Assembly: GCA_043810165.1 (NCBI GenBank) | Contig: JBDROJ010000023.1 | Location: forward strand, 4,675 to 68,674 | Source of the DNA: a bacterium | GTDB taxonomy: Bacteria > Patescibacteriota > Patescibacteriia > Magasanikbacterales > GWA2-37-8 | Direction of reading: 5' to 3' | DNA: 64,000 nt | Part shown: in pieces, positions 4,375 through 63,655 of the stretch | Position numbering within the stretch: position 1 is the first letter of the stretch | Layout: every line of letters starts with the position of its first letter | Notes under the pieces: model-generated | Database searches by the model: none | Told to the model about the DNA's origin: nothing | Seen by the model: the letters and a program-made list of their open reading frames with translations, nothing else | Program-made: the position numbers and the translations under genes

Positions 4375-5235
4375 ATGTTAGATACTATAAAAGGAATAAT
4401 CTTAGACATAGACGGTGTTATCGTGGGTAGTAAAAAAGGAGTTAACTCCCCCGACCCACATCCTGATGTAATCAAAAGATTAAAACAAATAAAAGAAGGT
4501 GGTATTCCGATAAGTCTTTGTACAGCTAAGCCGTATTTTGCTATTGAAAAAATAGTTAGAGAAGCTAATTTGGATAATGTTCATATTGTTAATGGTGGTG
4601 GAGCAATAATGAATCCAATTACTGGCAAGATAGTCAAAACTCACAGTATCGATCAAACTATTTTAAGAAGTATTTTAGAAATGCTTTTAAAAGAAGATGT
4701 TTATACTGAGTTATATACAGTTGAGGATTATTATATCCAGAAAAGCCAGTATCGACATATTACTGATAAACATACTCATGTTTTACAAAGAGAACCAAAA
4801 GTAGTTGAATCTTTACTAGATGAGATTTCTTCTTTAAAAGTAGTTAGGATATTGGCTGTTACTGAAGACAGAGAAGATAGATATATCTTTGAAGATAAAT
4901 TCAAGCCTTTTACCGACAGTCTAAATCTTGGTTGGGGAGTCCACCCAGTAATCCTTCCTTTACAGTTTGGCGGTATTACTCCTAAAGGTATATCTAAAAG
5001 CCATGGAGCGGTTGAGATTGCGGAGAATTTTGGTGTGTCTCTTAACGATATGCTTGGCGTAGGTGATAGCAAACGTGATTGGGAGTTTATAGGGCAATGC
5101 GGATATGGGGCAGCTATGGGAAACGCCAGTCAAGCTTTAAAGGATTTAGTTTTGACCAAAGAGAAGAGTCGTTCATATATCGGCGGTGACGTTGATGAAA
5201 ATGGTATTTTGGAGATATTGGATTATTTTATTTAA
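4375..5235 (+). CDS. HAD-superfamily hydrolase, Cof-type (HAD-IIB) phosphatase
   Basis: N-terminal ILDIDGV (DxD) motif and C-terminal GVGDSKRD...GYGAAMGNA motif, as in Cof/YbiV phosphatases. Confidence 0.75.
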   Translation: MLDTIKGIILDIDGVIVGSKKGVNSPDPHPDVIKRLKQIKEGGIPISLCTAKPYFAIEKIVREANLDNVHIVNGGGAIMNPITGKIVKTHSIDQTILRSILEMLLKEDVYTELYTVEDYYIQKSQYRHITDKHTHVLQREPKVVESLLDEISSLKVVRILAVTEDREDRYIFEDKFKPFTDSLNLGWGVHPVILPLQFGGITPKGISKSHGAVEIAENFGVSLNDMLGVGDSKRDWEFIGQCGYGAAMGNASQALKDLVLTKEKSRSYIGGDVDENGILEILDYFI

Positions 5236-5245
5236 ACTGACGGGC

Positions 5246-5722
5246 ATGGGAGAAATCACCATAAGACAATACAAGGATTCTGACAAGGATAAGATATGGG
5301 ATTTACATATTAAAGTTCTGGAAGACGCTGGTGCGTTGGCTGATAGTGGGCCATGGGATGATGATTTGAAAAATATACAACATGAGTATATTAGTGGTGG
5401 CGGTACTTTTTTAGTAGGTTTATCAGGTGACGAAATAGTGGTGATGGGAGCCTTAAAGGTTGTAGATAATAATAATGTTGAAATAAAAAGGATGAGAGTG
5501 TTACCAAAATATCAGAGAAAAGGTTTGGGTCAGTTAATGTTGGATAAATTAGAAGAGAAAGCCGTTGGTAGTGGTTATAATCAAATTCAGCTAGACACAA
5601 CAGATAAACAAATAGCAGCTCAAAATTTTTATGTTAAAAATGGATACAAAGAAGTGAGCCGTATTAAAGGAAAAAAGTTTGAAAGCATAATTTACAAAAA
5701 GAATTTAGTGGCTGGTATATAG
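5246..5722 (+). CDS. GNAT-family N-acetyltransferase
   Basis: Track ORF 5186..5722 trimmed to the ATG at 5246 (MGEITIRQYK...). Contains the acetyl-CoA-binding motif RVLPKYQRKGLGQLML. Confidence 0.75.
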   Translation: MGEITIRQYKDSDKDKIWDLHIKVLEDAGALADSGPWDDDLKNIQHEYISGGGTFLVGLSGDEIVVMGALKVVDNNNVEIKRMRVLPKYQRKGLGQLMLDKLEEKAVGSGYNQIQLDTTDKQIAAQNFYVKNGYKEVSRIKGKKFESIIYKKNLVAGI

Positions 5723-5810
5723 TGTGGAAGGGGTGTGTACAAAACTAGACTCACCTAACCTTGCACAAATCCCCAACAATCCCAGTTCGCACGTCCTCCA
5801 CTACCCCGCT
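5714..5810 (+). repeat. intergenic repeat family, copy A (~95 bp; contains the 28-mer cagttcgcacgtcctccactaccccgct)
   Basis: Near-identical to 7543-7634 and shares the perfect 28-mer with 6750-6777. Begins at the stop codon of the GNAT gene and is followed by T7. Confidence 0.8.
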
Positions 5811-5854: not shown

Positions 5855-6109
5855 ATGACCATACAGCAATTTATAAAAAAGAGACCATATCTGGTTTGGT
5901 ATACAAAGAATTATGATGAACTCTCTGAAGATGCGATTTTAGAAGCCACTCTTAACTACGGTGATTTTGATGATGTTAAAAAAATGGTAAAAATATTGGG
6001 CATGAGAAAGGCGGCTGATATATTTAAAAAGAAAAATAAACAGAAAAGAAATAATTTCAAACCCCAAGTGTCTCATTATTTTAAATTGTTTTTTAAGCAA
6101 CATGCATAA
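5855..6109 (+). CDS. small protein (84 aa) upstream partner of the AbiEii-like nucleotidyltransferase; putative antitoxin/partner
   Basis: Overlaps the downstream gene by 8 nt (ATGCATAA). No recognisable domain by eye. Confidence 0.45.
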   Translation: MTIQQFIKKRPYLVWYTKNYDELSEDAILEATLNYGDFDDVKKMVKILGMRKAADIFKKKNKQKRNNFKPQVSHYFKLFFKQHA

Positions 6110-6716
6110 AGAAGTATTGAACCAAAAACAAACAGAACTACTACCTTTATTAAAGAAGTTTAATAAAGATTTTGGTTTAGTTGGTGGTACAGCTATCGCC
6201 TTACAACTTGGTCATCGTCAATCAATAGATTTTGATCTGTTTTCTAATAAGCCAATTAAGCCGAGTGATATTCGACGTAAGATAAAAGGAGTTGCTAATA
6301 TAGATAAGGTATTAATTAATGAGAAAGATGAGTATACGGTTATTGTCAATGGGGTAAAAATTACTTTTCTTTTTTATCCATTTAAAATAAAATTTTCTAA
6401 ATCGTTGTCAAATATTATAAAATTACCTGATCTAAAAACATTGGCAGCAATGAAGGCATATGCCCTAGGTAGGCGAGCTAAATGGAAAGATTATGTTGAC
6501 CTATATTTTATTATGAAAGATAAGTATGGTATAAAATCGGTGACGAAAAAGGCCAAACAGATTTTTGAAGAAGAATTTAATGAGAAGATATTTAGAATAC
6601 AATTAAGTTATTTTAAAGATATTGATTATACTGAAAAAGTAGAATATACCAACGATCAGAAAACACCAGATTCAGTTATCAAAAAAGAATTAAAAGATAT
6701 CAGTTTAAAAATTTAA
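6102..6716 (+). CDS. nucleotidyltransferase, AbiEii/AbiGii-toxin-like family (DUF1814-type)
   Basis: GGTAIALQLGHRQSIDFDLF matches the GS...D.D nucleotidyltransferase signature of the AbiEii family. 204 aa. Confidence 0.6.
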   Translation: MHKEVLNQKQTELLPLLKKFNKDFGLVGGTAIALQLGHRQSIDFDLFSNKPIKPSDIRRKIKGVANIDKVLINEKDEYTVIVNGVKITFLFYPFKIKFSKSLSNIIKLPDLKTLAAMKAYALGRRAKWKDYVDLYFIMKDKYGIKSVTKKAKQIFEEEFNEKIFRIQLSYFKDIDYTEKVEYTNDQKTPDSVIKKELKDISLKI

Positions 6717-6729
6717 AGTTCCTAGTACT

Positions 6730-6813
6730 ACACCTATTAGGAACTATTTCAGTTCGCACGTCCTCCACTACCCCGCTCATACGAAAATATAGCTAAAACA
6801 AGCGGTATTTTTT
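6730..6813 (+). repeat. intergenic repeat family, copy B (perfect 28-mer plus terminator-like tail)
   Basis: cagttcgcacgtcctccactaccccgct at 6750-6777, then catacgaaaata...aagcggtattttttt as in copy C. Confidence 0.8.
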
Positions 6814-6900: not shown

Positions 6901-7419
6901 GTGAATAGAAATATTTTGGTGCAGGATGAGAGAAAGGTAAGACGCCTACTTCATCTTTGTAGACTAATGCAGGCGGTGTCTTTTTCAACCAAAGACATAA
7001 ATCATGAATTAGCTCGTAGAGTTGGGTATAAAAATAAGCATACGCTTGTAAATGCTATACGTCTATCTGCTTCATGGCGAAGTGTTGAGGAATTGGATAA
7101 ATATCCTTTCACCAAACCGAGCGATAGATTTATACTCAATACAGATCCCAAGAAAGATCCTGAGAGTGGGGATTATGTCACCGTACATAACTTTGTATGG
7201 AGAGACGAAGCACTTAGAAAAAGTGGTTTCATAAATGAGGAAGGCCAGCCTCTCATAGAACTACCTATTCCGAGCGAGATTGTTACTCACGCAGAAAGAG
7301 TAGCTGGGTGGTTGTACAAAAAAAGTCCTACTTACGTTTTGAATGCATTAATTGGTAATCCAGCAGAAACATTGAGTTTATTGCATGAAATGCGGAAGAG
7401 AGGTAAAAATGAAAGTTGA
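6901..7419 (+). CDS. hypothetical protein (172 aa), GTG start with GGAGG SD
   Basis: Track ORF. ggaggtgtcagGTG. No recognisable domain. Flanked by repeat copies B and C. Confidence 0.5.
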   Translation: MNRNILVQDERKVRRLLHLCRLMQAVSFSTKDINHELARRVGYKNKHTLVNAIRLSASWRSVEELDKYPFTKPSDRFILNTDPKKDPESGDYVTVHNFVWRDEALRKSGFINEEGQPLIELPIPSEIVTHAERVAGWLYKKSPTYVLNALIGNPAETLSLLHEMRKRGKNES

Positions 7420-7542: not shown

Positions 7543-7672
7543 ATAGTGTGGAAGGGGTGTATGTAAAACCAAATTCACCTAACCTTACACAAATTATCCA
7601 TCACCCCAGTTCGCACGTCCTCCACTACCCCGCTCATACGAAAATACCGCTATAATAAGCGGTATTTTTGGT
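7543..7672 (+). repeat. intergenic repeat family, copy C (full length, with terminator hairpin ataccgct-ataataa-gcggtat + T-run)
   Basis: Aligns by eye with copy A over ~95 bp and with copy B over the 28-mer and tail. Confidence 0.8.
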
Positions 7673-8618: not shown

Positions 8619-9170
8619 ATGAATGGTCCTAACAAGACCAAGCTGGCTGAGATGATGGGAGTTTCAAGACGATTATTGTATTATGACCACAAACAACCAA
8701 ATAAAGATTGGGAGTTAAAGACCAGGATAGAACTAGCCTTGCAAAACCATCCTAGCTATGGACACAAAAGACTAGCCACCTATTTAGGCAGAAACAAAAA
8801 AGCAGTACTAAGAGTGATGAATATGTTTGGCATTAAGCCATACCGACGAAAAGGCAAAAAATACAAGTATATTAAGCTAAAAAAGGATAAGATATTTACC
8901 AACCTGCTTTTTGAAGACAAACCACAGTGTCCCAATCACATCTGGGCTTCTGACTTTACCCACATAGCTAAGTTTAACAATAAGTGGGTTTATCTGGCCA
9001 CTATACTAGATTTATTCACTAGAAAGATTGTAGGTTTTAGTATTCTAATGAATCACAGTAACCAACTGGTTATAGAAGCTTTGCTAATGGCCATATTTAC
9101 AAATAATCTAGCAAGAGTTAATTCAAAGACAGCCCAAATAGGTTGTCTTTTTAGTAACTCCAGCACATGA
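8619..9170 (+). pseudogene. IS3-family transposase OrfB, 3'-truncated (integrase core incomplete)
   Basis: HTH_21-like N-terminus and the first DDE motif region are present; the rest of the catalytic core is missing. Confidence 0.55.
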
Positions 9171-16759: not shown

Positions 16760-19700
16760 ATGCCTTCAGTTTTTAAGCGCCAACCTCTTAAGACAAAAGA
16801 GAGAAAATATTTTGCTGATACTCGATCAACCGTGCCCATGCCAGATTTAATTGAAGTGCAGAAAAGTTCTTATGATTGGTTTTTGAAAAATGGTATTAAA
16901 GAATTGTTTGAAGAGACTTCCCCGATTACCGATTTTAGCGGTCGTGACCTAGAAGTCTATTTGGAAGATTATTATCTGGATGACTCAAAATTTGATGAAG
17001 TTACTTGTCGAGAGCGCAATATTACCTACGATGCTCCTTTACGCGTAACCGCCAGATTAGTCAGTAAAAAGACAAACGAGGTAAAATCGCAAGAAATTTA
17101 TTTGGGAGATATCCCTTTAATGACACAACGTGGTACCTTTATAGTCAATGGCATTGAAAGAGTAGTTGTTTCCCAATTAATTAGAAGCGCTGGAGCATTT
17201 TTTACGGCCGAGACAGTGCGTGGAAGACGTTATTATGGTGCCAAAATTATTCCTAACCGCGGTGCTTGGATTGAAATTGAAACCGATTCTAATAATGTGA
17301 TTTGGGTTAAAGTAGATAGAAAGCGCAAAGTAGCTATTACTTCTCTTTTGCGTGCTTTTGGTTATGAGTCAGATGAAAAATTAATGGATTTATTTAAAGA
17401 TATTAACACTCATCCGAATATTGATTATATTGAATCAACTTTGCAGAAGGATGTTGCTAAAAATGAAGATGATGGCTTGATTGAAGTTTATAAAAGAATA
17501 AGACCGGGCGATTTGGCGACTTCTGACAACGCCAAAGGTTTGATACACGCCATGTTTTTCAATTTTGATCGTTATGATTTGGGTAAGGTTGGTTTGTATA
17601 AATTTAATACGAAATTTGATTTGGGCTATGACACCAAAGATTTTGATGACAAAGAAAAACGCGTGTTGTCCCCTGAAAAATTATTAGCAGTTGTAAAAGA
17701 GGTAATAAGATTAAACGTTACCCAAGAAGAACCGGACGATATTGATCATTTGGGCAATCGTCGCATTCGAGCTGTTGGTGAATTGGTGCAAAATCGTTTT
17801 CGTGTAGGTTTGGCACGAATGGAGCGCATCATCAAAGACAGGATGAGCACGCAAGAAATTGAAAATCTGAATCCAAATAAATTAATTAATGCCCGTCCAG
17901 TAATTAGCGCTATCCGTGAGTTTTTTATGAGCTCGCAGTTGTCTCAATTTATGGATCAAACCAATCCCTTGTCCGAATTGGAGCATAAAAGGCGTGTAAG
18001 TGCTTTGGGCCCTGGTGGTTTATCTCGCGATCGAGCAGGTTTTGAAGTAAGAGATGTTCATACCACACATTACGGGCGTATTTGTCCGATTGCCACACCA
18101 GAAGGACCCAATATCGGCTTGGTAAATCATTTGGCTAGCTATGCTAAGGTAAATGAATATGGTTTTATTGAGACGCCTTATCGCAAAGTTTTAAAAGAAG
18201 TTGATAATAAAGCCGAATTAACTGAAGGTGAGATTTTATTTGAAGATGTAGAAAAAATTGAAGCCGGTACTAAAATTACTTCGGATATAGCTAAAAAATT
18301 GGCCAATGTTAAGTTGGAAAAAATTAAGATAAAGCCCAGAGCCACAAATGAGATTGTTTATCTCAATGCTTTTAAAGAAGAAAAATCCATAACTGCTTCG
18401 GCCACGATTGATCTTGATGAATCTGGATATTTCATGGGAGAAAATGTACCTGCTCGCATCTATGGACAGCCAGGCACGGTGAAAACCGATCAAATTGATT
18501 ATCTTGACGTATCATCTAACCAAATTGTTAGTGTGGCTACTTCCTGTGTTCCATTCTTAGAGCATGATGATGCTACTCGCGCTCTTATGGGTTCAAATAT
18601 GCAACGCCAGGCCGTACCTTGCATAAAGGCTGAAGAGCCGATTGTGGGCACAGGCATAGAAGCCAAAGCCGCTGTTGATTGCGGTCATATTATATTGGCC
18701 GAGTGTGACGGCGAAGTTGTTGAGTTGGATGGTGCTCATATGGTGATCAAAGATCAAAAAGGTGAAAAATATACTTATAATTTAAATAAATTTATTCGTT
18801 CAAATGCTTCTACATGCGTGAATCAAACTCCAGTAGTGAATTTGGGAGAAAAAGTTAAGAGAGGACAAGCATTAACTGATGGACCAAGCGTGAGCAATGG
18901 CGAATTAGCCCTGGGTCAAAATGTATTGGTTGCCTACATGATTTGGGACGGCTATAATTATGAGGATGCCATAATTGTTTCAGAATGTTTGGTGCAAGCT
19001 GATCGATACACTTCTATTCATATTGAAGATTATACCATTGATGTACGTGAGACCAAATTAGGTTCAGAAGTTGTTACATCTGATATACCAAATGTCAGTG
19101 AAGAAAAATTAAAAAATTTGGATAGTGAAGGCATAGTTCGCATAGGTGCTGAAGTAAAATCAGGAGATATTTTAGTGGGTAAAATTACCCCTAAGGGTGA
19201 AACTGAATTAAGCGCTGAAGAAAGATTGTTAAGAGCGATTTTTGGAGAAAAAGCTCGAGATGTGCGTGACTCTTCTTTGTATTTAGAGCACGGCGAACAT
19301 GGCCGTGTGATTGGCATTAAGATTTTTTCAGCCGAGCAGGGCGATAAATTACAGCCAGGAGTTGTTAAACAAGTACAAGTTAGGGTGGCTGATATGCGCA
19401 AGGTGCAAGTAGGCGATAAAATGGCTGGCCGACACGGCAACAAAGGTGTAATTTCCAGAGTGGTACCCCGTGAAGATATGCCATTCCTGGCTGATGGCAC
19501 GCCTGTTGATATTATCTTATCTCCTTTGGGAGTTGTTTCCCGCATGAACTTAGGACAGTTGCTAGAAACTCATATCGGTTTAGCAGCTAATGCTTTGGGC
19601 TATAAGATGGCCACTCCTGTTTTAAATGGTCTGACAGAAGAACAAATTAAACAAGAATTAATCAAAGCAGGCTTTCCGGAAAATGGCCAAGTAACTTTGT

Positions 19701-26671: not shown

Positions 26672-26712
26672 AAAAAAATATCCCCGGATGTGTATTCGGG
26701 GATATTTTTTAA
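26672..26712. terminator. bidirectional terminator (atatccccgga-tgtgtat-tcggggatat flanked by A7/T6)
   Basis: Between convergent genes 25891..26664(+) and 26721..27743(-). Confidence 0.6.
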
Positions 26713-26720
26713 TAATTTTT

Positions 26721-27707
26721 TTAAAAGATTGGCTTTGGTTTAATATCCGAATACCGTTCTATCGTTTTGATAATAGTCTTTTTATTCAACAGGCCATTTT
26801 GCGCTCCTACTTGAGTAATTACCCCGCAACTATTAGCTATGCCCCAACGCAAAGCCTGCGGGCGGTTATATCCATAACAGCGAGCTGAAACATATCCGGA
26901 TGAAAAAGCATCGCCAGCACCTGTTTTGGCTACGACTTTCGCCGGGTAACTAGGCATATACCAAACTTCGTCCAAACTGCCCACATATGCTCCTTTGGCC
27001 GAATCAGTGATTACGACTTCTTTAGCTCCCAAGCCAACCAATTGGCGAAGCAGGGCTGTCATGTTTTTAACTTCTTTAAGGCTGGTTTGTAAAATATGCT
27101 CGGCTTCCTGTGTATTCACTATTAAAATTTCTGATATGGCAATGGTTTCTTTTACCTCATCCAAATGATTTTTTAATTGATAAGATCCTGGATTAAAAGC
27201 TAGACGGACAGTTGGGTGTTTTTTTAACCAAACCAGCATGTTTTTCTTGATTTTTTTAAAACCCATGCTCAATCCGGTATAATAAAGCCAATCTGTGGCA
27301 GGCATCTTGCTGGGCCAGATATAGTTTCTTTTTCCATGATAAGCCAATATAGTTCTTTCTCCTTTGAAGTTTAACACAACTGAATAACGGGTCTGTTTTT
27401 TATCTTTCACTATTACATGTTCGATGTCAACATTGAATTTTATTAATTCGTCAAGAGCCAGACGGCCATTAGGGTCATTGCCGATGGAGCTTATTATGGC
27501 TGATTTTAATCCCAATTTTACTGCTCCGACCGCCACATTAGATGCATTTCCGCCCAAAGATTGAAAACTATCGCGAATAGGAATTTTAGTAGCAAAATCT
27601 AGGCATAATTGGCAAGGTTTATTTTTTATTTTACATTGCAAGTTGGCATCGTCAATTTGGACATGCGTGTCAATCACTATATCTCCAACTGTAATTAAAT
27701 TGAACAT
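26721..27707 (-). CDS. PfkB-family carbohydrate kinase (ribokinase-like)
   Basis: GG motif (LGGNASNVAVG) and C-terminal TGAGDAFSSGYV anion-hole motif. Start is uncertain: ATG at 27707, or TTG at 27743 as in the track. Confidence 0.7.
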   Translation of the reverse strand: MFNLITVGDIVIDTHVQIDDANLQCKIKNKPCQLCLDFATKIPIRDSFQSLGGNASNVAVGAVKLGLKSAIISSIGNDPNGRLALDELIKFNVDIEHVIVKDKKQTRYSVVLNFKGERTILAYHGKRNYIWPSKMPATDWLYYTGLSMGFKKIKKNMLVWLKKHPTVRLAFNPGSYQLKNHLDEVKETIAISEILIVNTQEAEHILQTSLKEVKNMTALLRQLVGLGAKEVVITDSAKGAYVGSLDEVWYMPSYPAKVVAKTGAGDAFSSGYVSARCYGYNRPQALRWGIANSCGVITQVGAQNGLLNKKTIIKTIERYSDIKPKPIF

Positions 27708-27753
27708 ATTATTTAATATGTCATTGCGAGCGTAGCGAAGCAATGACAGTTGA

Positions 27754-29009: not shown

Positions 29010-29651
29010 TTAACTAGATATTAATTTTTTAACCGCTTCTTTTATATTATCAGCGCCCATTAAAGCACTGCCCACATTGAATATTTCCACTCCCCAGGAT
29101 TTTACTTCAGCAATAGTGTTTTGATTAATTCCGCCATCCACGGCTATTACTGGGTGGTTTGGTATTTTTGCAAATTCAATTATTTTGCTTTTCATTTCAG
29201 GCAGGAAAGGTGATCCTTGCCGGCCTGGATAAACAGTCATGAATAGAACTTGATCAATTTGACCTAGGTAAGGTTCTAATATCGCAATAGGTGTATCAGG
29301 ATTAAGAGCGATTCCTGCTTGCCAGTTGTTTTGTTTTATCTGTTTAATTACTTGGATTGGATCATCTTGGGATTCAATATGAAATACTACTCGAAAGACG
29401 TTTTTTATTGATTTCCATTGCTTTAATTCATTGAGAGGGTGATTGACCATCAAATGTAATTCATAATTTAAATACTGATTTAAATACTGATTTAAATCAG
29501 TATTTTCTTCCGCATGATTAAATGATTTATTGGGAACAAAATCACCATCCATTATATCCAATTGTATGTAATCAAAGAGCCGTTCCACTTGTTTAAGTTG
29601 TTTTTCTAGTTGATCGTAGTTGTCTACTAATATTGTCGGAACTATTTTCAT
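29010..29651 (-). CDS. rpe: ribulose-phosphate 3-epimerase
   Basis: IQLDIMDG and VDGGIN motifs. Contains an in-frame tandem LNQYLNQYLN repeat. Confidence 0.85.
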   Translation of the reverse strand: MKIVPTILVDNYDQLEKQLKQVERLFDYIQLDIMDGDFVPNKSFNHAEENTDLNQYLNQYLNYELHLMVNHPLNELKQWKSIKNVFRVVFHIESQDDPIQVIKQIKQNNWQAGIALNPDTPIAILEPYLGQIDQVLFMTVYPGRQGSPFLPEMKSKIIEFAKIPNHPVIAVDGGINQNTIAEVKSWGVEIFNVGSALMGADNIKEAVKKLISS

Positions 29652-33590: not shown

Positions 33591-34556
33591 ATGTTAACAG
33601 TAAAACAAATTTTTGAGTTGGGAATACAAATGGGAATTAAAGCCGATCCAAGGGGTATGAACGGAGTTAAGGAATACTTGGAACGGATAAAAAAGGGATA
33701 TGGTGATTTAAAGCCCAAAGACAAGAAATATTTTGACAAGGAGAGATTGGTTAATCCTTATTCAGATAGTCAAATTCATTTAAGCGATGGGAAAACCACA
33801 GTCAAACGAGTGATGGCCGGTATAGATATTGATGAAGGAGAAATTTTGTTAGCCAGTCAATTGAATGAAAGAGATAAAAAAATAGATCTGGTAATTTCTC
33901 ACCATCCCATTGGAAAAGGTTTGGCTGACCTGCATGCAGTTATGGATTTGGTGGTTGAAATTTATGAGCAGAATGGCGTGCCCGTGCATGTGGCTGAGAA
34001 ATTGATGGAAGAGAGGATTAAAGAGGTTGGCAGAGGCGTGCATCCGGTTAATCATTATCAAGTTATTGATATTGCGCGTTTATTGAAGTTAAATTTAATT
34101 AATACTCATACTATTACTGATAATCTGGTCAATGATTACCTGGTTAAGTATTTAGCTAAGAAAAAACCGCGTACAATCGGAGATTTGGTCGATGCTTTAT
34201 TGGAAATTCCAGAATATGATGAAGCTAAAAAGCGAGGAGCCGGGCCAAGTATTTTCGCTGGTGACCCAAGACATCGCGTGGGTAAATATTTAATGGAGAT
34301 GACCGGTGGTACTAGCCCGTCTGATAAAGTTTATAAAGAGTTGTCGCGATATGGTATCAGCACTGTGGTGGGCATGCATATGAGGGATGCGGCCAGAGAA
34401 AATGCCAGTGAACATCATATGAATGTTGTGATTGCAGGTCATATTGCTTCTGATTCTTTGGGCATGAATTTATTTTTGGATGAATTGGAAAAAAATGGAA
34501 TTGATGTTGTGCCAGTGGGAGGGTTGATCCGTATCAGTAGAGTGAAGAAGAAATAG
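33591..34556 (+). CDS. Nif3-like dinuclear metal center protein (GTP cyclohydrolase 1 type 2 / YqfO family)
   Basis: Two signature metal-binding motifs: VISHHP and IAGHIASDSLG. Confidence 0.8.
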   Translation: MLTVKQIFELGIQMGIKADPRGMNGVKEYLERIKKGYGDLKPKDKKYFDKERLVNPYSDSQIHLSDGKTTVKRVMAGIDIDEGEILLASQLNERDKKIDLVISHHPIGKGLADLHAVMDLVVEIYEQNGVPVHVAEKLMEERIKEVGRGVHPVNHYQVIDIARLLKLNLINTHTITDNLVNDYLVKYLAKKKPRTIGDLVDALLEIPEYDEAKKRGAGPSIFAGDPRHRVGKYLMEMTGGTSPSDKVYKELSRYGISTVVGMHMRDAARENASEHHMNVVIAGHIASDSLGMNLFLDELEKNGIDVVPVGGLIRISRVKKK

Positions 34557-34574
34557 AATATAATTTTTTTATTA

Positions 34575-34760
34575 TCTCAGATAAATACCAAGTTTTTATT
34601 GATATGTATCTTAAATTAGTCGAGATAGATATTGATTTATAAAGCGCCAACCGCATCCCGACTGGGTCGGGATGATGTCCGACCAAATGTAGGGCTAAAT
34701 CTTGGCGCAAGTAAATCAATATCTATGAGAATAATTTGAAAACTTGGTATTTATCCGAGA
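34575..34760 (+). ncRNA. 186-bp triply nested inverted-repeat element with a GC-rich apical core (candidate rod-like structured RNA or miniature mobile element)
   Basis: Outer 22-bp inverted repeat (34575-34596 / 34739-34760, 21/22 match). Inner 14-bp inverted repeat (34625-34638 / 34713-34726). Core 7-bp stem gcgccaa/ttggcgc (34644-34650 / 34702-34708) enclosing the hairpin cccgac-tgg-gtcggg. Confidence 0.45.
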
Positions 34761-34771
34761 TATATCCACTT

Positions 34772-35344
34772 ATGATTTCATATATTCAGGGAAAAATAAT
34801 TGAAAAAAGTTTATCTGCTCTAACGGTTTTAACTTCTGGTGGGGTAGGTTATGATGTAAGCATAAAGCCGACTGCTTTGGACAAATATAAGATAGGTGAT
34901 GAAGTGCAGATGCCGACTTTTTTGGCAGTGGGCGAAAGCATGCTTGATTTATATGGTTTTGAAAATTCAGCAGAACGAGAGTTGTTTATTCACTTTAAAA
35001 GCGTGTCTGGAATTGGACCTAAATCAGCTTTGCATTTATTGTCTTTGGGCACGGTTGAAGAGATAACAGGCGCCATCAGTGCCGGAGATGTTGAATATTT
35101 GACCAAAGTCAGCGGAGTGGGGAGGAAAACCGCTGAACGCGTGGTAGTGGAATTAAAATCAAAGATGGGAGATATGACCTTGGGCAGTTTAAGCCCGCAG
35201 AATGAGAGTCTTGGAGACGTTGTTGATGGTTTGGTGGCCATGGGATATTCTATGTTGCAAGCCAGAGAATCTGTAAGATCTTTGCAAGCAGACGGAAAGA
35301 GTACAGAACAGATCATGAGGGAGGCTCTGCAGAAAATGAAGTAG
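34772..35344 (+). CDS. ruvA: Holliday junction branch migration protein RuvA
   Basis: MISYIQGKII start; HhH motifs (IGPKSALHLLS, VSGVGRKTAERVV). The track N-terminal extension overlaps the inverted-repeat arm and is rejected. Confidence 0.85.
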   Translation: MISYIQGKIIEKSLSALTVLTSGGVGYDVSIKPTALDKYKIGDEVQMPTFLAVGESMLDLYGFENSAERELFIHFKSVSGIGPKSALHLLSLGTVEEITGAISAGDVEYLTKVSGVGRKTAERVVVELKSKMGDMTLGSLSPQNESLGDVVDGLVAMGYSMLQARESVRSLQADGKSTEQIMREALQKMK

Positions 35345-48121: not shown

Positions 48122-48592
48122 TTATTTTTTATAGGTTACAAAAGAATATCCGTTATGGTCTTCTCGTTCTACCTCTTTCCAGATGGTCGTGTCAATTTTT
48201 GGAAAAAAGGCATCGCCCTCAACCAGCCCGCGTACATGAGTTATATATAAGGTATCAGCCAGATCAATGGTCTGGGCATAAATTCCAGCGCCACCAATTA
48301 CAAAAATATCTTCGTTTTCATGATCTGCAAATGCTTGTTGGATGTTGTTATACACTTCGGCTCCGTTCGGCACTTGATAGTCGGTACTGCGAGTTATAAC
48401 AATATTTTTTCGTTTTGGAAGAGGCTTGCCCAAATAGCCTAAAATTGATTCAAAAGTTTTGCGTCCCATTAATACGGTTTTTTTGGAAGTTAATTCTTTA
48501 AAATGTTTCAGATCTTCAGGTATATGCCAAGGAAGCTGATTGTTTTTGCCGATGCAATTATTGTCTGCCACGGCCGAAATTAATGCGATCAT
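48122..48592 (-). CDS. folA: dihydrofolate reductase
   Basis: MIALISAVADNNCIGKNNQLPW...GRKTFES DHFR motifs. Confidence 0.88.
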   Translation of the reverse strand: MIALISAVADNNCIGKNNQLPWHIPEDLKHFKELTSKKTVLMGRKTFESILGYLGKPLPKRKNIVITRSTDYQVPNGAEVYNNIQQAFADHENEDIFVIGGAGIYAQTIDLADTLYITHVRGLVEGDAFFPKIDTTIWKEVEREDHNGYSFVTYKK

Positions 48593-48615: not shown

Positions 48616-48713
48616 TTAGTCAGAGAGATACAATACTTCTACGAAACATTCCGCAGATCCGACCGGAGCATGGGCGGGGACGTTGAGGAGAGGTATTGTA
48701 TCTCTCTGACAGG
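48616..48713. repeat. 18-bp perfect inverted repeat (gtcagagagatacaatac / gtattgtatctctctgac; extendable to ~22 bp with wobble pairs) enclosing a GC-rich 48-56 nt core, between thyA and folA
   Basis: Read directly from the sequence. The core ccgcagatccgaccggagcatgggcgggga resembles the cores at 34651-34675 and 7457-7494 by eye. Confidence 0.6.
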
Positions 48714-48717
48714 ATGA

Positions 48718-49590
48718 TTATACAGCAATATCAAATTTAATTCTAGGATAACTTTCATATCCAATTATTTTTGTATCCTGGGCAGTCCAATCAAAAATTG
48801 AAGTAAAGTTTTCTGTGATGATTTGGGGTAGGGGATATTTGTTTGGATCACGGCTTAGTTGTTCTTTTGCGCCGTCTATGTGATTAGAATAGATATGAGT
48901 GTCACCCAAGAATCCGACTAGACGACCTTCTTTAAAACCGGTTTCTTTGGCTAATAAATGTAAGAGAGTGGCGTAGCTGGCAATATTAAAAGGTAAACCT
49001 AGCATGACATCAACCGAACGCTGGTTCCAGAGCAAGTTTAGTTTTTCATTGCTAACAACTACTTGGAATTGAAAATGGCAAGGCGGAAGAGCCATGTCTT
49101 GTAATTGGCAGGGATTCCAAGCTGATACAATCATACGGCGGTCAAATGGATCGGTTTTTAGATTGTGAATTAGTTTTTTTAATTGATCCACGCCTTGGCT
49201 AGTATAATCTGTATCGTAATTTTTGTAATCAGCATTAAAATGCCGCCATTGAAATCCATAAATCGGGCCTAGGTCTCTTTCTTCAGACATTTTCTTTTTA
49301 GTTTCTTGGTCATGACCATAAGGGACTTTTTTGGGACTGCACCATTCATCCCAAATGTGATTTTTATGATCTTTTAACCATTGTTTGTCGGTTATGCCTT
49401 GAATAAAAAATTCTAATTCTGTAGTTATTAAACGAAAAGGCATTTTTTTGGTAGTGAGCAAGGGGAATCCATCAGACATTTCGTGTTCAAATATAACACC
49501 GGCAATGGATTGAGTGCCAGTGCCGGTACGGTCTTGTTTTTTTATTCCCTTATCCAGGATTTTTTCTACTATTTTTAAGTAGTTCAGCAT
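48718..49590 (-). CDS. thyA: thymidylate synthase (ThyA type)
   Basis: Active-site LPPCH motif and GxPFNIASY motif. Confidence 0.92.
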   Translation of the reverse strand: MLNYLKIVEKILDKGIKKQDRTGTGTQSIAGVIFEHEMSDGFPLLTTKKMPFRLITTELEFFIQGITDKQWLKDHKNHIWDEWCSPKKVPYGHDQETKKKMSEERDLGPIYGFQWRHFNADYKNYDTDYTSQGVDQLKKLIHNLKTDPFDRRMIVSAWNPCQLQDMALPPCHFQFQVVVSNEKLNLLWNQRSVDVMLGLPFNIASYATLLHLLAKETGFKEGRLVGFLGDTHIYSNHIDGAKEQLSRDPNKYPLPQIITENFTSIFDWTAQDTKIIGYESYPRIKFDIAV

Positions 49591-59017: not shown

Positions 59018-59117
59018 CTTCAGCTCTCCACTTCTGATGGTTGTTAAGAATAGCAATCACCAGAAGAGAGCTGAAGTTGTAATTAAAAAATACCGATTAT
59101 GTCGGTATTTTTTTTGT
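59018..59117 (+). terminator. long interrupted hairpin (cttcagctctc...gagagctgaag, ~16 bp) followed by the intrinsic terminator aataccga-ttat-tcggtatt + T9
   Basis: Read directly from the sequence, downstream of 58508..58975. Confidence 0.55.
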
Positions 59118-59284: not shown

Positions 59285-61990
59285 CTAAAATTGTATAGTA
59301 CCTATAGTTTCTAGCATCTGTACTCCGTTTCCAGAGTTATCAAGTTCCTCAATTATTGTAGTCTCTACAGGATCTTCAAAAGTTAAAGCTTCAAAAACCC
59401 CTTTTAATATATTCATCACACCCGGGTCAGTGTCAACCCAAGATGTATTTTTAAGAGCTATATCGGCTAAATTTGTGTAATCTAATTTTTTACCATATAA
59501 ATCAGAAACCACATTGCGTGAATGACTGACATAGTTTGTTTTACCAGGATAAATACCACATAAGTGAGGAGCGCCCAATTTGATAGATAATACCTTCCCG
59601 CTATCATCTAAACTAACCATGGTGTCAAAAGTTTTGTAATATCTTAAATTTGCATATTGATTATTATCAGTTAGTACTGCTGGCAAATCACCTACACCCC
59701 AAATATTTATCCTATTCAAACTACTTGGATCACCATAATTATCACCTAACCCAAGAGTAAATAATCCATTCACGGCAGAGCCCTGCACCGTTCCTTTGAC
59801 CGGAGTACTTCCACCAGAACAGGCATTAATATTTACCGAACCTGAACCCGGAGTTAGGCTACTATGTATTGTGGCTGGATCAATCCTCTTATCAAAAGTT
59901 ATATAAATTTTTTCTTCTTGAGTTAATCTATATCGTCCAGTCAAACTGAAGCCACCTTCTTTAAAATAGACGATACTTTTAACTTTTGGTTGAACATTAT
60001 AATATGAACCCAAGCTAGTACCAGCATTGAATTTCAAAATCACACCATCTAATGGTCTGTTGTTTAATGTATCGGTAACTTCATTCTCTAACCAACTAAT
60101 ATCTATCTTTGTATCGGAATCTTGCCAAACAAATCCATTGTCACTTCCAAAACCAGCGTAATCTATGCTAGCCAACATATTACTGCTAAAATTATTAAAA
60201 CCAACATCTGCATAAACATAGAAATACGCGGTTTTTCCTTCATCAAGTAAATTTAGACCGTTCTCGGTAGTAAAATAACATCTCCACTTGTGTTGTTGAG
60301 TAGTAACATAACCTAGGCTAGAACAATCACTTGATGGAGCCGGTGTATAAGTAGTGGGAGAAACTAATTTTAAGTTGTCTATAATAGCACCACCCAGATC
60401 AAAGCTAATATCAATGTATTTTAAAGTTAGATTATTATTAGCTACATCTTCAGAATTGTTTTGCGCTTGAATTTTGAAACTAAACAATTCAATATTCTCT
60501 CCACCGTTTAGGTTTTCTGCATTTATTTTTAAATTACCACCCCAGTTACTTGAGTACCAATTTGATTTATTAACCAAACTAAGTTTGGGTTTGGTATCAA
60601 CTACCTGAATTTTTGTTTTTATGGCTAAAGTATCCACAGTTGGTTTTTTACCTGTGCTGGCTCCTTTGGCAGTTAAACTAGCTAATTTTAATTCAAGTTT
60701 ACGACCAACCGGAGAAGTAGAATGGGTAGGTAGATTTAGATCTGTACCAATTTTTGTTTTTAAAGTTATAATAACTGTTTCACCTTGCGGTATTTTAATT
60801 ATATAATTGTTATCTGACCAAGTAGCTTCAGCATACAACAACGCTTCTTTGAATGTAGATTTACCAGCTGTTTTGTTGTCACTTAAAAGTTCAACTGATT
60901 TAATTAATGAGTTTCCCACACTATAATGTATACCACCTTGCATTTCACTATCTAAATAGGTTGCTTGAAATTTGAGATCGGTAATATATATGTCTTCTCG
61001 TTCCGAAGCGGTGGCTTTGAAGACCAAGACATCTCGTTCAGAACCTGTCAAAACTTGTTTATCATATGTTTTTATATAATCTAATTTTAAGTCTAAAGTG
61101 GTAGGAATTTGTTGGGTTGTATTAGGGTCGGTAGTTGGCTCTGAATTTGTTTCGTCTAGTTCTGCTTCTTCTTCAGCAACAGATGGGATATTCGGAGCAT
61201 TATCAATCTGCTCCATTTCTACCTCTATAGATAATTGAGCGTATTCAATTAATTCTTGGGATTGCCTCTTTACTTCTTCCTCTAATATCTTCATATTTTT
61301 AATCATTTCCATTTCCATTTCATGTACATACACCTCTTTTAGTCCGTTCTCTTTAAAACCTTCTTCAGTAATTTCGCTAAGAGTTTTATCTGAATTCACT
61401 ACATACTTTTTTTCCTTTACTTCTACCACCATTCCTGGATGTGGGTCTGGATTTTTGCCTGTAATCTCCGGAGCTGTATTATAGTAATTCAACATAGATG
61501 GTAATGAAATCTCACGTAAGGGAAAATTCTTTCCATACAAATTTTCAGCTGCTTCTTTGGTGATTAGTGCTTTGGTATTGTCGGGTAAAACTGCATAAAG
61601 TTCTTCACTTCCACGTGTTTTTATTATACCAGACCCAGCGCGACGATTTATATAAACTGGAAATTTATTGGCTACTTGAAAACTAGCCAAACAATCAGCT
61701 GTAACTAACTTAAAATGATTGTCATAATCATTATCTGTATGCCATGTTTTGAAATCATCGCCGTCTAAATATGGGCGTATCTTATTATCACTACCCACGT
61801 TCCAAATAGCTCGAGAATTCCAGTTATTTGATTTAATATTATCGCCTTTATTGACCGTGCTACACTCCACTGGTTTTTTTTGCGAGTCTTCTTCGGCCGA
61901 AGCGTTTGGTATATAACCAGTAGGTGAAAAACTTAATGAGGCAACAAGCGCAAAAATTGCGCAAAATCCTAGAATTATTTTTTTCTTCAT
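59285..61990 (-). CDS. large secreted protein (901 aa) with signal peptide, hypothetical surface/cell-envelope protein
   Basis: MKKKIILGFCAIFALVASLS signal peptide. Acidic E/M-rich coiled segment, then a beta-rich region. Confidence 0.7.
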   Translation of the reverse strand: MKKKIILGFCAIFALVASLSFSPTGYIPNASAEEDSQKKPVECSTVNKGDNIKSNNWNSRAIWNVGSDNKIRPYLDGDDFKTWHTDNDYDNHFKLVTADCLASFQVANKFPVYINRRAGSGIIKTRGSEELYAVLPDNTKALITKEAAENLYGKNFPLREISLPSMLNYYNTAPEITGKNPDPHPGMVVEVKEKKYVVNSDKTLSEITEEGFKENGLKEVYVHEMEMEMIKNMKILEEEVKRQSQELIEYAQLSIEVEMEQIDNAPNIPSVAEEEAELDETNSEPTTDPNTTQQIPTTLDLKLDYIKTYDKQVLTGSERDVLVFKATASEREDIYITDLKFQATYLDSEMQGGIHYSVGNSLIKSVELLSDNKTAGKSTFKEALLYAEATWSDNNYIIKIPQGETVIITLKTKIGTDLNLPTHSTSPVGRKLELKLASLTAKGASTGKKPTVDTLAIKTKIQVVDTKPKLSLVNKSNWYSSNWGGNLKINAENLNGGENIELFSFKIQAQNNSEDVANNNLTLKYIDISFDLGGAIIDNLKLVSPTTYTPAPSSDCSSLGYVTTQQHKWRCYFTTENGLNLLDEGKTAYFYVYADVGFNNFSSNMLASIDYAGFGSDNGFVWQDSDTKIDISWLENEVTDTLNNRPLDGVILKFNAGTSLGSYYNVQPKVKSIVYFKEGGFSLTGRYRLTQEEKIYITFDKRIDPATIHSSLTPGSGSVNINACSGGSTPVKGTVQGSAVNGLFTLGLGDNYGDPSSLNRINIWGVGDLPAVLTDNNQYANLRYYKTFDTMVSLDDSGKVLSIKLGAPHLCGIYPGKTNYVSHSRNVVSDLYGKKLDYTNLADIALKNTSWVDTDPGVMNILKGVFEALTFEDPVETTIIEELDNSGNGVQMLETIGTIQF

Positions 61991-62026
61991 ATGATTGTTT
62001 TATACCCTAAAAATAGATTAGGGTGT

Positions 62027-62195
62027 TTAAGGCACTGTCGCCAAATACCATTTTGACTAAAAATTACATATTTCGGCCATAATTTCTGAAAAATTTTTTA
62101 GCTTAGCTAAGGCTAAACCGTAAAATTTGTTCAAAAATTCTGGCTCAAAATCTAAAATTTTTATTTCAAAAACGTATTTGGCGACAGTGCCTTAA
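62027..62195. repeat. 169-bp element bounded by perfect 22-bp terminal inverted repeats (ttaaggcactgtcgccaaatac / gtatttggcgacagtgccttaa) with an AT-rich interior
   Basis: Read directly from the sequence. MITE-like architecture. The interior contains a TTGACT - 18 nt - CATAAT promoter-like motif. Confidence 0.6.
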
Positions 62196-62307
62196 TTATT
62201 ATTCTATTATTGTATCACGGAACTGTACAAAGGTAAAATTACAAAACAAAGAGATTGTGGTTTATGAATGTGATTTCGGAAACAAAAATAGATTTGTTTT
62301 AATACAA

Positions 62308-62337
62308 CAAATACCAAGTTCATAAACTTGGTATTTG
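62308..62337. repeat. 13-bp perfect hairpin caaataccaagtt-cataa-aacttggtatttg sharing its 12-mer arms with the outer inverted repeat of the 34575-34760 element
   Basis: aaataccaagtt and aacttggtattt occur at both loci. Could also act as the Fic terminator. Confidence 0.55.
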
Positions 62338-62587
62338 CGTCAATTTAATATATTTATCAATTCCAATTTTTTCGATAAAGTATCTATCATGAGATACAAT
62401 TATTATGGGAATGGGCTGTGATAAAATAGACTTTTCCAATTCTTCTCGAGTACAGCCGATGTTAAATTTTATATGTTATCTTATTCTGTAATAGTTAAGT
62501 CGTTTATAGTTAATGTTGGTACTAATATATGTAGTAAATATTATATCCGATCAGTTTTCAATGGCAAGGGTAGTTTATTCACCATTG

Positions 62588-63655
62588 TTATTTAAAATAA
62601 TTCGCAACCGCAAATTCAATCTGTTCGATAAATATTTTTTTAATATAAGTAATATTATTTTGTTCATAAAATAATAACATAGCTTTCTTATATTCTATAG
62701 CATCAACATTTCTATAAGATAGCATTGGACATTGATTGGCGTGTAGAATAGCATTAGCAATTATACGAGAAGTCCTTTTATTCCCATCTTCAAAAGGTTG
62801 AATATAGGCGATCATAATTAGAAAAACAAAAGCCTTAAGAAAATGATTATTAGTTTTATCTATTTTTTCTGTCAAACAATTAATAGCCTGTTCAATTTTA
62901 TCTTTTTTTGACAATGGCCTGTAAAGAGTCCCTGTAATTCCAACTGAACGATTGCGAAAGTCAGTTTTTATTTCAATTCCTTGAACTAGCGATGAATGAA
63001 TTTCTTTTATTTTACTAATATTAATCTTCTTATTAAAATGGTTAGGTCTTAACAGAATGTAGTCCAAAACTTTTTTATGATTCAATATCATTTGAGCTTC
63101 GGTCTTATTTTTACCTTTGGCAAAAGACATATCTTTAATAAGAAATTCTGTTTCCAATAAAGTATATGTATTGCCTTCTATTTCTGAAGATTTCCATGAC
63201 AAATCAATAACAAGACGCTCCCATTCTTTCTTGAAAATAGTCGAACTTTCTTTTTTTAAAGAATTCACAGTTTTATTATATTTAACTTCAGCTTTTTTGA
63301 GTCTCTCATATTCTTCTTTTGAAAAAACATCCTCTGACAATTGGTTAATTATATCCCTGTCAAAAAAAGGTTTTGCATTTCTTTCACCATGATGAATTGA
63401 AAAATATGTATTCACATCATATTCTTTAATAAGTAAATATTTTTTTGATATTTGATAAGAGACACCACGTCCTTTCCCTTCTTTAGTTAATATTAATTTT
63501 TTAGTTAATAGAGACAAATCTCGAACAATGGTCAATCTTTCAACATCAAATTTGTCTTTTAGATATGCTAAAATATCCTTGGTTTGAAAGGATTTTGTTT
63601 GTTCTGCAAATTTTATTATTTTCTTTTGCCTATTATTTAATTTATCAATATCCAT
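62588..63655 (-). CDS. Fic/DOC-family protein with an N-terminal winged-helix domain
   Basis: Fic motif HPFEDGNKRTSR (matching HPFx[D/E]GNGR). Confidence 0.85.
   Translation of the reverse strand: MDIDKLNNRQKKIIKFAEQTKSFQTKDILAYLKDKFDVERLTIVRDLSLLTKKLILTKEGKGRGVSYQISKKYLLIKEYDVNTYFSIHHGERNAKPFFDRDIINQLSEDVFSKEEYERLKKAEVKYNKTVNSLKKESSTIFKKEWERLVIDLSWKSSEIEGNTYTLLETEFLIKDMSFAKGKNKTEAQMILNHKKVLDYILLRPNHFNKKINISKIKEIHSSLVQGIEIKTDFRNRSVGITGTLYRPLSKKDKIEQAINCLTEKIDKTNNHFLKAFVFLIMIAYIQPFEDGNKRTSRIIANAILHANQCPMLSYRNVDAIEYKKAMLLFYEQNNITYIKKIFIEQIEFAVANYFK

Follow-up and report, generated by a model that had tools for sequence, protein, structure and literature searches.

Hairpin C (62308-62337) is located in the 597 nt that separate a Fic gene (62588-63655, minus strand), whose product carries a winged-helix N-terminus, from the gene for a 901-aa secreted protein (59285-61990, minus strand), where the GC content of the 64-kb window (the whole stretch of DNA that was analysed) drops to 27.5%. 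It is a perfect palindrome, CAAATACCAAGTT / cata / AACTTGGTATTTG, with a 13-bp stem free of mismatches and a loop of 4 nt. A sequence-only reading had described this 13-bp perfect hairpin at the same positions, which is borne out here, and had given its loop as cataa by counting one arm base twice. Folding of the hairpin as single-stranded DNA yielded -12.5 kcal/mol (z about -8.6 in comparison with shuffled sequences). The stem, in which 4 of the 13 pairs are G/C, starts with AAA and ends with TTT, and no T-run is present on the plus strand. A terminator scan of positions 61900-62700 returned no terminator-like site on either strand, and hairpin C was not called. Inspection of the minus strand by eye revealed the same 13-bp stem with its four G/C pairs followed by TTGTTGTATT, an arrangement weaker than the clear A-run/T-run terminators of this genome and weak at best as a terminator. 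Those bidirectional intrinsic terminators (e.g. 26673-26710, 399-431 and 59085-59113) are intergenic hairpins running from an A-run to a T-run, and hairpin C likewise reads AAA...TTT; in these terminators, however, the centre of the stem is GC-rich and 4-7 T follow it. Hairpin C does not qualify as an intrinsic terminator in the sense of a GC-rich stem-loop with a U-tract, and on the minus strand it would act at most as a weak terminator or stabiliser.

Analysis of the sequence next to hairpin C revealed a minus-strand reading frame (62320-62470, …TREELEKSILSQPIPIIIVSHDRYFIEKIGIDKYIKL…) that enters one arm of the hairpin and meets its stop in the loop (…TREELEKSILSQPIPIIIVSHDRYFIEKIGIDKYIKLTQIPSL*). 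It encodes a truncated internal piece, IIIVSHDRYFIEKI, and is located downstream of the Fic gene. A Pfam search of these 51 aa gave no match. Because its best solved-structure matches are the ABC-F proteins ExpZ/VmlR (residues 447-479, E = 2e-5) and EttA, the frame is identified as an internal remnant of an ABC-F ATPase gene, truncated at both ends and with hairpin C at its 3' break. Upstream of the remnant and of hairpin C, the minus strand has a strong match to a sigma-70-like promoter (TTGCCA-16-TATAAT, 62567-62540), from which a long leader running through hairpin C and element B into the 901-aa gene is predicted to be possible. The genes found beside glnA in relatives are of another kind altogether (MazE antitoxin, hypothetical proteins, an MFS fragment), so the region of hairpin C is variable and not syntenic, with no orthologous position for the hairpin.

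Element B (62027-62195; like the other palindromes, given without strand), a 169-nt hairpin separated from hairpin C by 112 nt, has arms of 37 nt that are 86% complementary and contain CAAATACCA. A homologue is present in another Magasanikbacteria species (L003:1-195), with near-identical arms (ACTGTCGCCAAAYACC), a conserved apex (AGCTTAGCTWARGCTAAACC) and an extra 37-nt GC-rich hairpin beside this apex. Scanning of viral contigs with the arm of element B gave 66 single matches, approximately as many as chance would produce, and in no case were both arms present as a pair.

The second palindrome considered here, element A (34573-34762), is a non-coding insertion of 190 nt, built of nested palindromes, that separates a NIF3-like gene (33591-34556, plus strand; 100% match to a protein named NIF3) from ruvA (34772-35344, plus strand; RuvA_N, HHH_5 and RuvA_C). 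Its outer arms of 24 nt (34573-34596 and 34739-34762; TATCTCAGATAAATACCAAGTTTT / AAAACTTGGTATTTATCCGAGATA) are 96% complementary, 17 nt of them perfectly, and an asymmetric internal loop lies between them and a second stem. This second stem with its core extends over 34625-34726 and consists of ATAGATATTGATTTA / TAAATCAATATCTAT, a perfect 15-bp pairing (34625-34639 / 34712-34726) that encloses a GC-rich core (approximately 34645-34712) made up of a 7-bp GCGCCAA/TTGGCGC stem and a 9-bp hairpin at 34654-34674. As RNA, element A reached minimum free energies of -79.6 kcal/mol (z = -10.6) on the plus strand and -77.9 kcal/mol (z = -11.7) on the minus strand. No coding capacity was found in its 142-nt interior, the sole ORF across it being a spurious 61-aa frame, and the interior lacks a transposase, was not found again elsewhere and has no recognisable termini. 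A target-site duplication of TA (34573-74 / 34761-62) or TAT (34570-72 / 34763-65) can be read, indistinguishable from the palindrome itself or from the AT-rich background. The Rfam gathering search of the whole window was passed by three tRNAs and nothing else, leaving elements A and B and hairpin C without a family, and a permissive search of 34400-34900 and 61950-62650 gave sub-threshold matches to unrelated families only, microRNA precursors among them.

The 215-nt gap between NIF3 and ruvA, 190 nt of which are taken up by element A, was compared with the same junction in related genomes. In the nearest relatives (L035-L039, 79% identical in NIF3), the distance from the NIF3 stop to the ruvA ATG is 1-2 nt, and in six of the eight GTDB relatives with adjacent genes (L001, L010, L013, L015, L016 and L017) the gap measures about 1-40 nt and contains no palindrome. 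The two exceptions are L019, whose gap has acquired a canonical terminator-like hairpin unrelated to element A, and L008, whose gap is occupied by another hairpin, of 138 nt, with TGTCATTGCGAG…CTCGCAATGACA arms and belonging to the repeat family described below. These comparisons show that element A as a whole, together with its arms, was inserted into an operon junction in this lineage specifically, and that the same junction has been filled independently by other hairpins in other lineages. From the short, palindrome-free gaps of the relatives it follows that the arms either came as part of the insertion or were added in a separate step before it. With the closest relative only 79% identical in NIF3, the insertion is undated.

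A scan for sigma-70-like promoters gave none on the plus strand between NIF3 and ruvA, and the ruvA ATG lies only 9 nt past the end of element A. These two features lead us to infer that element A is co-transcribed with both genes. The resulting transcript would form a duplex of about 24 bp that RNase III could plausibly cut, and such cleavage could uncouple the two mRNA halves or stabilise them.

The arm core found in both palindromes is the 12-mer AAATACCAAGTT, present as the inverted pair AAATACCAAGTT / AACTTGGTATTT. It occurs at exactly four sites in the 64-kb window, at 34583-34594 (plus) and 34741-34752 (minus), within the left (34573-34596) and right (34739-34762) arms of element A, and at 62309-62320 (plus) and 62325-62336 (minus) in hairpin C. 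Shuffling gave a mean of 0.06 matches, with four matches reached in 0 of 100 shuffles, and no other 12-mer outside low-complexity sequence has four occurrences in the window. Each palindrome contributes two copies, so the independent occurrences are two and not four. The sequence-only reading had placed the right copy in element A correctly and the left one at 34586-34597, 3 nt away from its true position; the rest of its description of the sequence holds. The distance between the two 12-mers is 146 nt, and that between the perfect 17-bp arms 142 nt. Unrelated occurrences of the 12-mer, which that reading had named as a finding against its proposal, were not found in the window beyond the four palindrome-arm sites. 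As to its other condition, arms that differ on alignment, the 12-mer is exact, and the arm sequence outside these 12 bp differs. Identity between hairpin C and element A ends at the 12-mer, the ten bases outside it matching at about 3/10 on the left and about 2/10 on the right, which is the level expected by chance. The 12-mer is internal to the 24-bp arms of element A; hairpin C shows nothing equivalent to the 10 bp outside the 12-mer (TATCTCAGAT) or to the 4 bp inside it (TTTT), and no trace of the cata loop of hairpin C flanks the interior of element A.

Three further ideas were tried and set aside. The 12-mer has no single-site occurrences in the window, which rules out a DNA uptake sequence. 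The apparent enrichment of AAATACCA (13 matches vs 5 expected) includes 5 matches in elements A and B and hairpin C, the rest being coding-DNA background. Sites 53662 and 53991 do not form a third palindrome, as both are on the same strand and inside or beside coding sequence.

Repeated 12-mers are common in 64 kb of DNA; what is unusual here is that both occurrences are in perfect stems. The window contains 19 perfect inverted repeats whose arms measure 12 nt or more, and on this basis the chance of two inverted repeats sharing a 12-mer was roughly estimated at about 0.002-0.015 per window, the upper figures (about 0.01-0.015) allowing for a local habit of hairpins to begin with AAATAC(C). 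An empirical control comprised the window and 46 loci, mostly from related Patescibacteria (695 kb, 156 inverted repeats, 12,090 pairs). In this set 36 pairs share a 12-mer; besides the pair formed by element A and hairpin C, the other 35 correspond to orthologous or duplicate sequences or to members of repeat families, namely the TGTCATTGCGAG family and the ATAGCCAATAGTTC family in L010. Both the estimate and the control, with no chance sharing among the other pairs, agree with the earlier statement that such a recurrence is unlikely by chance. Descent is therefore the better bet for the common 12-mer, and coincidence keeps appreciable weight because the finding was picked from a large scan.

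Within the 64 kb there is one long copy, element A, and one short copy, hairpin C. Paired AAATACCAAGTT arms with up to two mismatches were absent from about 630 kb of other fetched loci, mostly of related Patescibacteria, and viral contigs scanned for the palindrome at arm spacings of 1-31 and 130-160 nt contained nothing. A 21-mer of the arm of element A recovered from JGI metagenome contigs one unrelated AT-rich single-arm sequence in two samples, about the number expected by chance, and blastn of element A and of the hairpin C region against phage genomes gave nothing meaningful. No transposase with matching ends was found among the window ORFs scanned, the only candidate being an rve fragment (8619-9170) whose ends do not match.

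Related genomes often contain long hairpins bounded by terminal inverted repeats. Among these is the TGTCATTGCGAG family, seen in the loci L002, L004, L007, L008, L011 and L014, with constant outer arms, 56-121 nt between them, conserved inner arms GAAGCAATCCCA…TGGGATTGC, interchangeable apical modules and nested stems; four copies are present within 11.7 kb in L008. The family is GC-rich, and in the window it is represented by a short form, the 30-nt hairpin TGTCATTGCgagcgtagcgaaGCAATGACA (27719-27748). This short form overlaps the 5' end of an ORF (26721-27743, translation LLRYARND…), for which reason the annotated start of this ORF is probably wrong. The hairpin element of the NIF3-ruvA gap in L008 (L008:1688-1825) has TAAAAATAT on both flanks (…AAATAAAAATATAAT[element]CTAAAAATATGATC…), which may represent a 9-bp target-site duplication of the family. 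No published name or relevant description of the TGTCATTGCGAG motif was found in the literature. Another arm-sharing family was observed at L010:13887-16978, where several hairpins have arms ATAGCCAATAGTTC(ACAGCCAATAG) at spacings of 23, 48 and 121 nt.

The TGTCATTGCGAG family belongs to the same phylum as element A and hairpin C, occupies the same kind of sites, including the NIF3-ruvA gap of L008, and shows the same short and long interiors and nested stems. In contrast, it has no sequence similarity to them and is multi-copy and conserved across species, whereas AAATACCAAGTT arms were found only in the window. Arm-sharing families with short and long forms do occur in relatives, and short and long palindromes with common arms are thus normal for this group.

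A further palindrome of the window, element D (48619-48710), measures 92 nt and forms a hairpin whose 18-nt arms pair perfectly around a GC-rich core. It is located between folA (48122-48592) and thyA (48718-49590), which are separated by 125 nt. Since the thyA-folA distance in L042 is just 13 nt, element D is a second operon-internal hairpin insertion. Homology between elements A and D is not claimed: the best local alignment (p about 0.006, uncorrected for six tests) involved the flank of element D, and the cores gave p = 0.26.

The explanation that we favour, with slightly less than even confidence, is that hairpin C and element A are the short and long members of a lineage-specific, non-coding family of REP/MITE-like palindromes, a type of element common in the genomes of Magasanikbacteria, and that element A was inserted whole between NIF3 and ruvA. 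Element A would have entered a NIF3-ruvA gap of 1-2 nt as a unit together with its arms, and hairpin C would have landed at the truncated 3' end of the ABC-F pseudogene, in a gene-poor stretch that is variable among relatives. The arms of both would be of common descent, AAATACCAAGTT being the part kept while the interiors and the outer arm bases diverged, and mobilisation would be in trans, by an enzyme encoded outside the window. The presence in the window of elements B and D, two further long hairpins of insertion type, speaks for such a family. Against it stand the single long and single short copy, the ambiguous target-site duplication and the lack of a transposase with matching ends among the window ORFs scanned. 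In addition, the 12-mer is internal to the arms of element A and not outermost, whereas MITE derivatives normally keep their outermost terminal bases, and a chance match of 0.2-1.5% per window is not negligible when many windows are scanned. The change may have run from short to long by insertion or from long to short by deletion.

The sequence-only reading had taken the pair as an empty and a filled version of one palindromic site. Stated as a mechanism, the C-type palindrome would be a recurrent site into whose loop a 142-nt structured element was inserted at 34597-34738, in the way that IS1397 inserts into the REP/PU of E. coli and IS1111-family elements into REP or attC. The same 12-bp arms enclose a 4-nt loop in hairpin C and a 146-nt interior in element A; apical additions are seen in related families (the 37-nt GC-rich hairpin in the L003 homologue of element B, and the modules of the TGTCATTGCGAG family); and the GC-rich core of element A within AT-rich stems looks layered. 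The junction itself argues against this mechanism. In relatives (the closest with 79% NIF3 identity) the whole of element A is missing, together with its arms, and because the NIF3-ruvA junction is without a palindrome in most relatives with adjacent genes, the hairpins of L019 and L008 being unrelated, two successive insertions would be needed. Moreover, the stem of element A runs 10 bp outward and 4 bp inward of the core with sequence missing at hairpin C, and no loop remnants are left around an interior without transposase, copies elsewhere or clear ends. What stands of the earlier proposal is the exact common arms, which are probably no coincidence, and the existence of short and long families in the group; what is not supported is one host site that is empty at one locus and filled at the other. 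We consider loop insertion unlikely, and the idea of an empty vs a filled site is not to be carried forward as stated. Element A does not qualify as an insertion sequence targeting palindrome loops (IS1397-like or IS1111/IS110-like), because its 142-nt interior is non-coding and no prior palindrome exists at the orthologous junction. Since the shared part is internal to the arms of element A and relatives have no prior palindrome at the junction, neither a MITE deletion derivative nor a filled site gives a clean fit. An extended form of loop insertion, in which small GC-rich hairpin modules enter the apical loops of existing AT-rich hairpins and so enlarge the palindromes of Patescibacteria layer by layer, with hairpin C as the bare first layer and element A as the product of three (the outer 24-bp stem, the 15-bp stem and the GC-rich core), seems to us improbable. 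The apical hairpin in the L003 homologue of element B and the interchangeable modules of the TGTCATTGCGAG family hint at it, and are no proof. If true, it would imply a mobile non-coding element that targets single-stranded DNA hairpin loops without an obvious transposase.

Coincidence is a possible, if somewhat unlikely, alternative, according to which hairpin C would be an AT-rich terminator-like or scar hairpin ending the decayed ABC-F gene, and element A an unrelated insertion. It would account for an identity that stops exactly at 12 bp with flanks at chance level. Several unrelated hairpins of the window also begin with AAATAC(C), and an A-run followed by TACC is a habitual start of hairpins here (AAAATACCGCT at 7641 and AAAAAATACCGA at 59085), which raises the odds of a match; a third copy was found nowhere in the related loci, JGI contigs or viral contigs, and the finding was selected from a large scan. 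The estimated chance of only about 0.002-0.015 per window and the 0 chance sharings in 12,090 inverted-repeat pairs count against it. Very little probability is given to the 12-mers being half-sites, either of an operator for a dimeric DNA-binding protein or of a dif/att-type recombination site. Being a perfect palindrome, hairpin C would match a large operator in size, and it lies in the variable 27.5% GC region beside a Fic gene with a winged-helix N-terminus, but its perfect 13-bp arms are unusually long for operators, it is located downstream of Fic and within a pseudogene remnant and not at a promoter, the half-sites of element A are 146 bp apart in a geometry incompatible with hairpin C, and the motif is absent from relatives.

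Regarding the family reading that we prefer, the closest known counterparts of element A are the Correia elements of Neisseria, the ERIC/IRU of enterobacteria and the RUP of Streptococcus pneumoniae, which are intergenic non-coding insertions of 100-200 nt with terminal inverted repeats that form one long hairpin. They are often located between co-directional genes and co-transcribed, and Correia elements are cut by RNase III. As in these MITEs, element A has terminal inverted repeats (24-nt arms) around a short non-coding sequence with no ORF, and it is a demonstrable insertion, the orthologous site being empty in relatives (gaps of 1-2 or about 1-40 nt vs 215 nt). Unlike them, with their tens to hundreds of copies and defined duplications (TA for Correia), element A is visible as one long copy, with an ambiguous duplication and no known parent IS. 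Hairpin C, in turn, resembles REP sequences in being a short extragenic palindrome. REP/BIME/REPIN elements, mobilised by RAYT, are extragenic palindromes of 20-40 nt, also found as larger hairpin composites, that follow genes and can stabilise mRNA or terminate transcription. REPs occur at high copy number, their palindromes are imperfect and start with a conserved 5' head of the GTAG type, and the arms of REPINs are each self-palindromic. In contrast, hairpin C is a perfect palindrome with no GTAG-like head, the arms of element A are not self-palindromic and no RAYT was noticed among the window ORFs scanned.

Elements of the proposed kind are known, and there is little documentation of them from CPR genomes; a literature search for MITE or REP elements in Patescibacteria/CPR found nothing relevant. 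If the family is true, it would illustrate on a small scale how REP/MITE-like repeats populate a streamlined CPR genome, inserting even in tight operons (NIF3-ruvA and thyA-folA). Such repeats could serve as strain markers and may affect operon expression via long RNA duplexes. No new mechanism is involved unless layered loop insertion is confirmed, the pair being otherwise a tidy but ordinary feature.

Two other repeats were observed in the window. An invariant 28-mer, CAGTTCGCACGTCCTCCACTACCCCGCT, is present in three direct copies (5783-5810, 6750-6777 and 7607-7634), each just 3' of a small plus-strand gene (GNAT, 5186-5722; AbiEii toxin, 6102-6716; unknown, 6901-7419). Copies 1 and 3 also have about 60 nt upstream in common, and copies 2 and 3 a downstream hairpin (AAAATAC.GCT…AGCGGTATTTT); the rve integrase fragment is located at 8619-9170. 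The arrangement resembles an array of cassettes or a series of attachment sites. Finally, a palindrome/tandem structure, AAATACTGATTTAAAT, was found at 29470-29505 within a coding gene (29010-29651), and its AAATACTGATTT palindrome is also present in L001 at 19304-19327, and is thus conserved at the DNA level.
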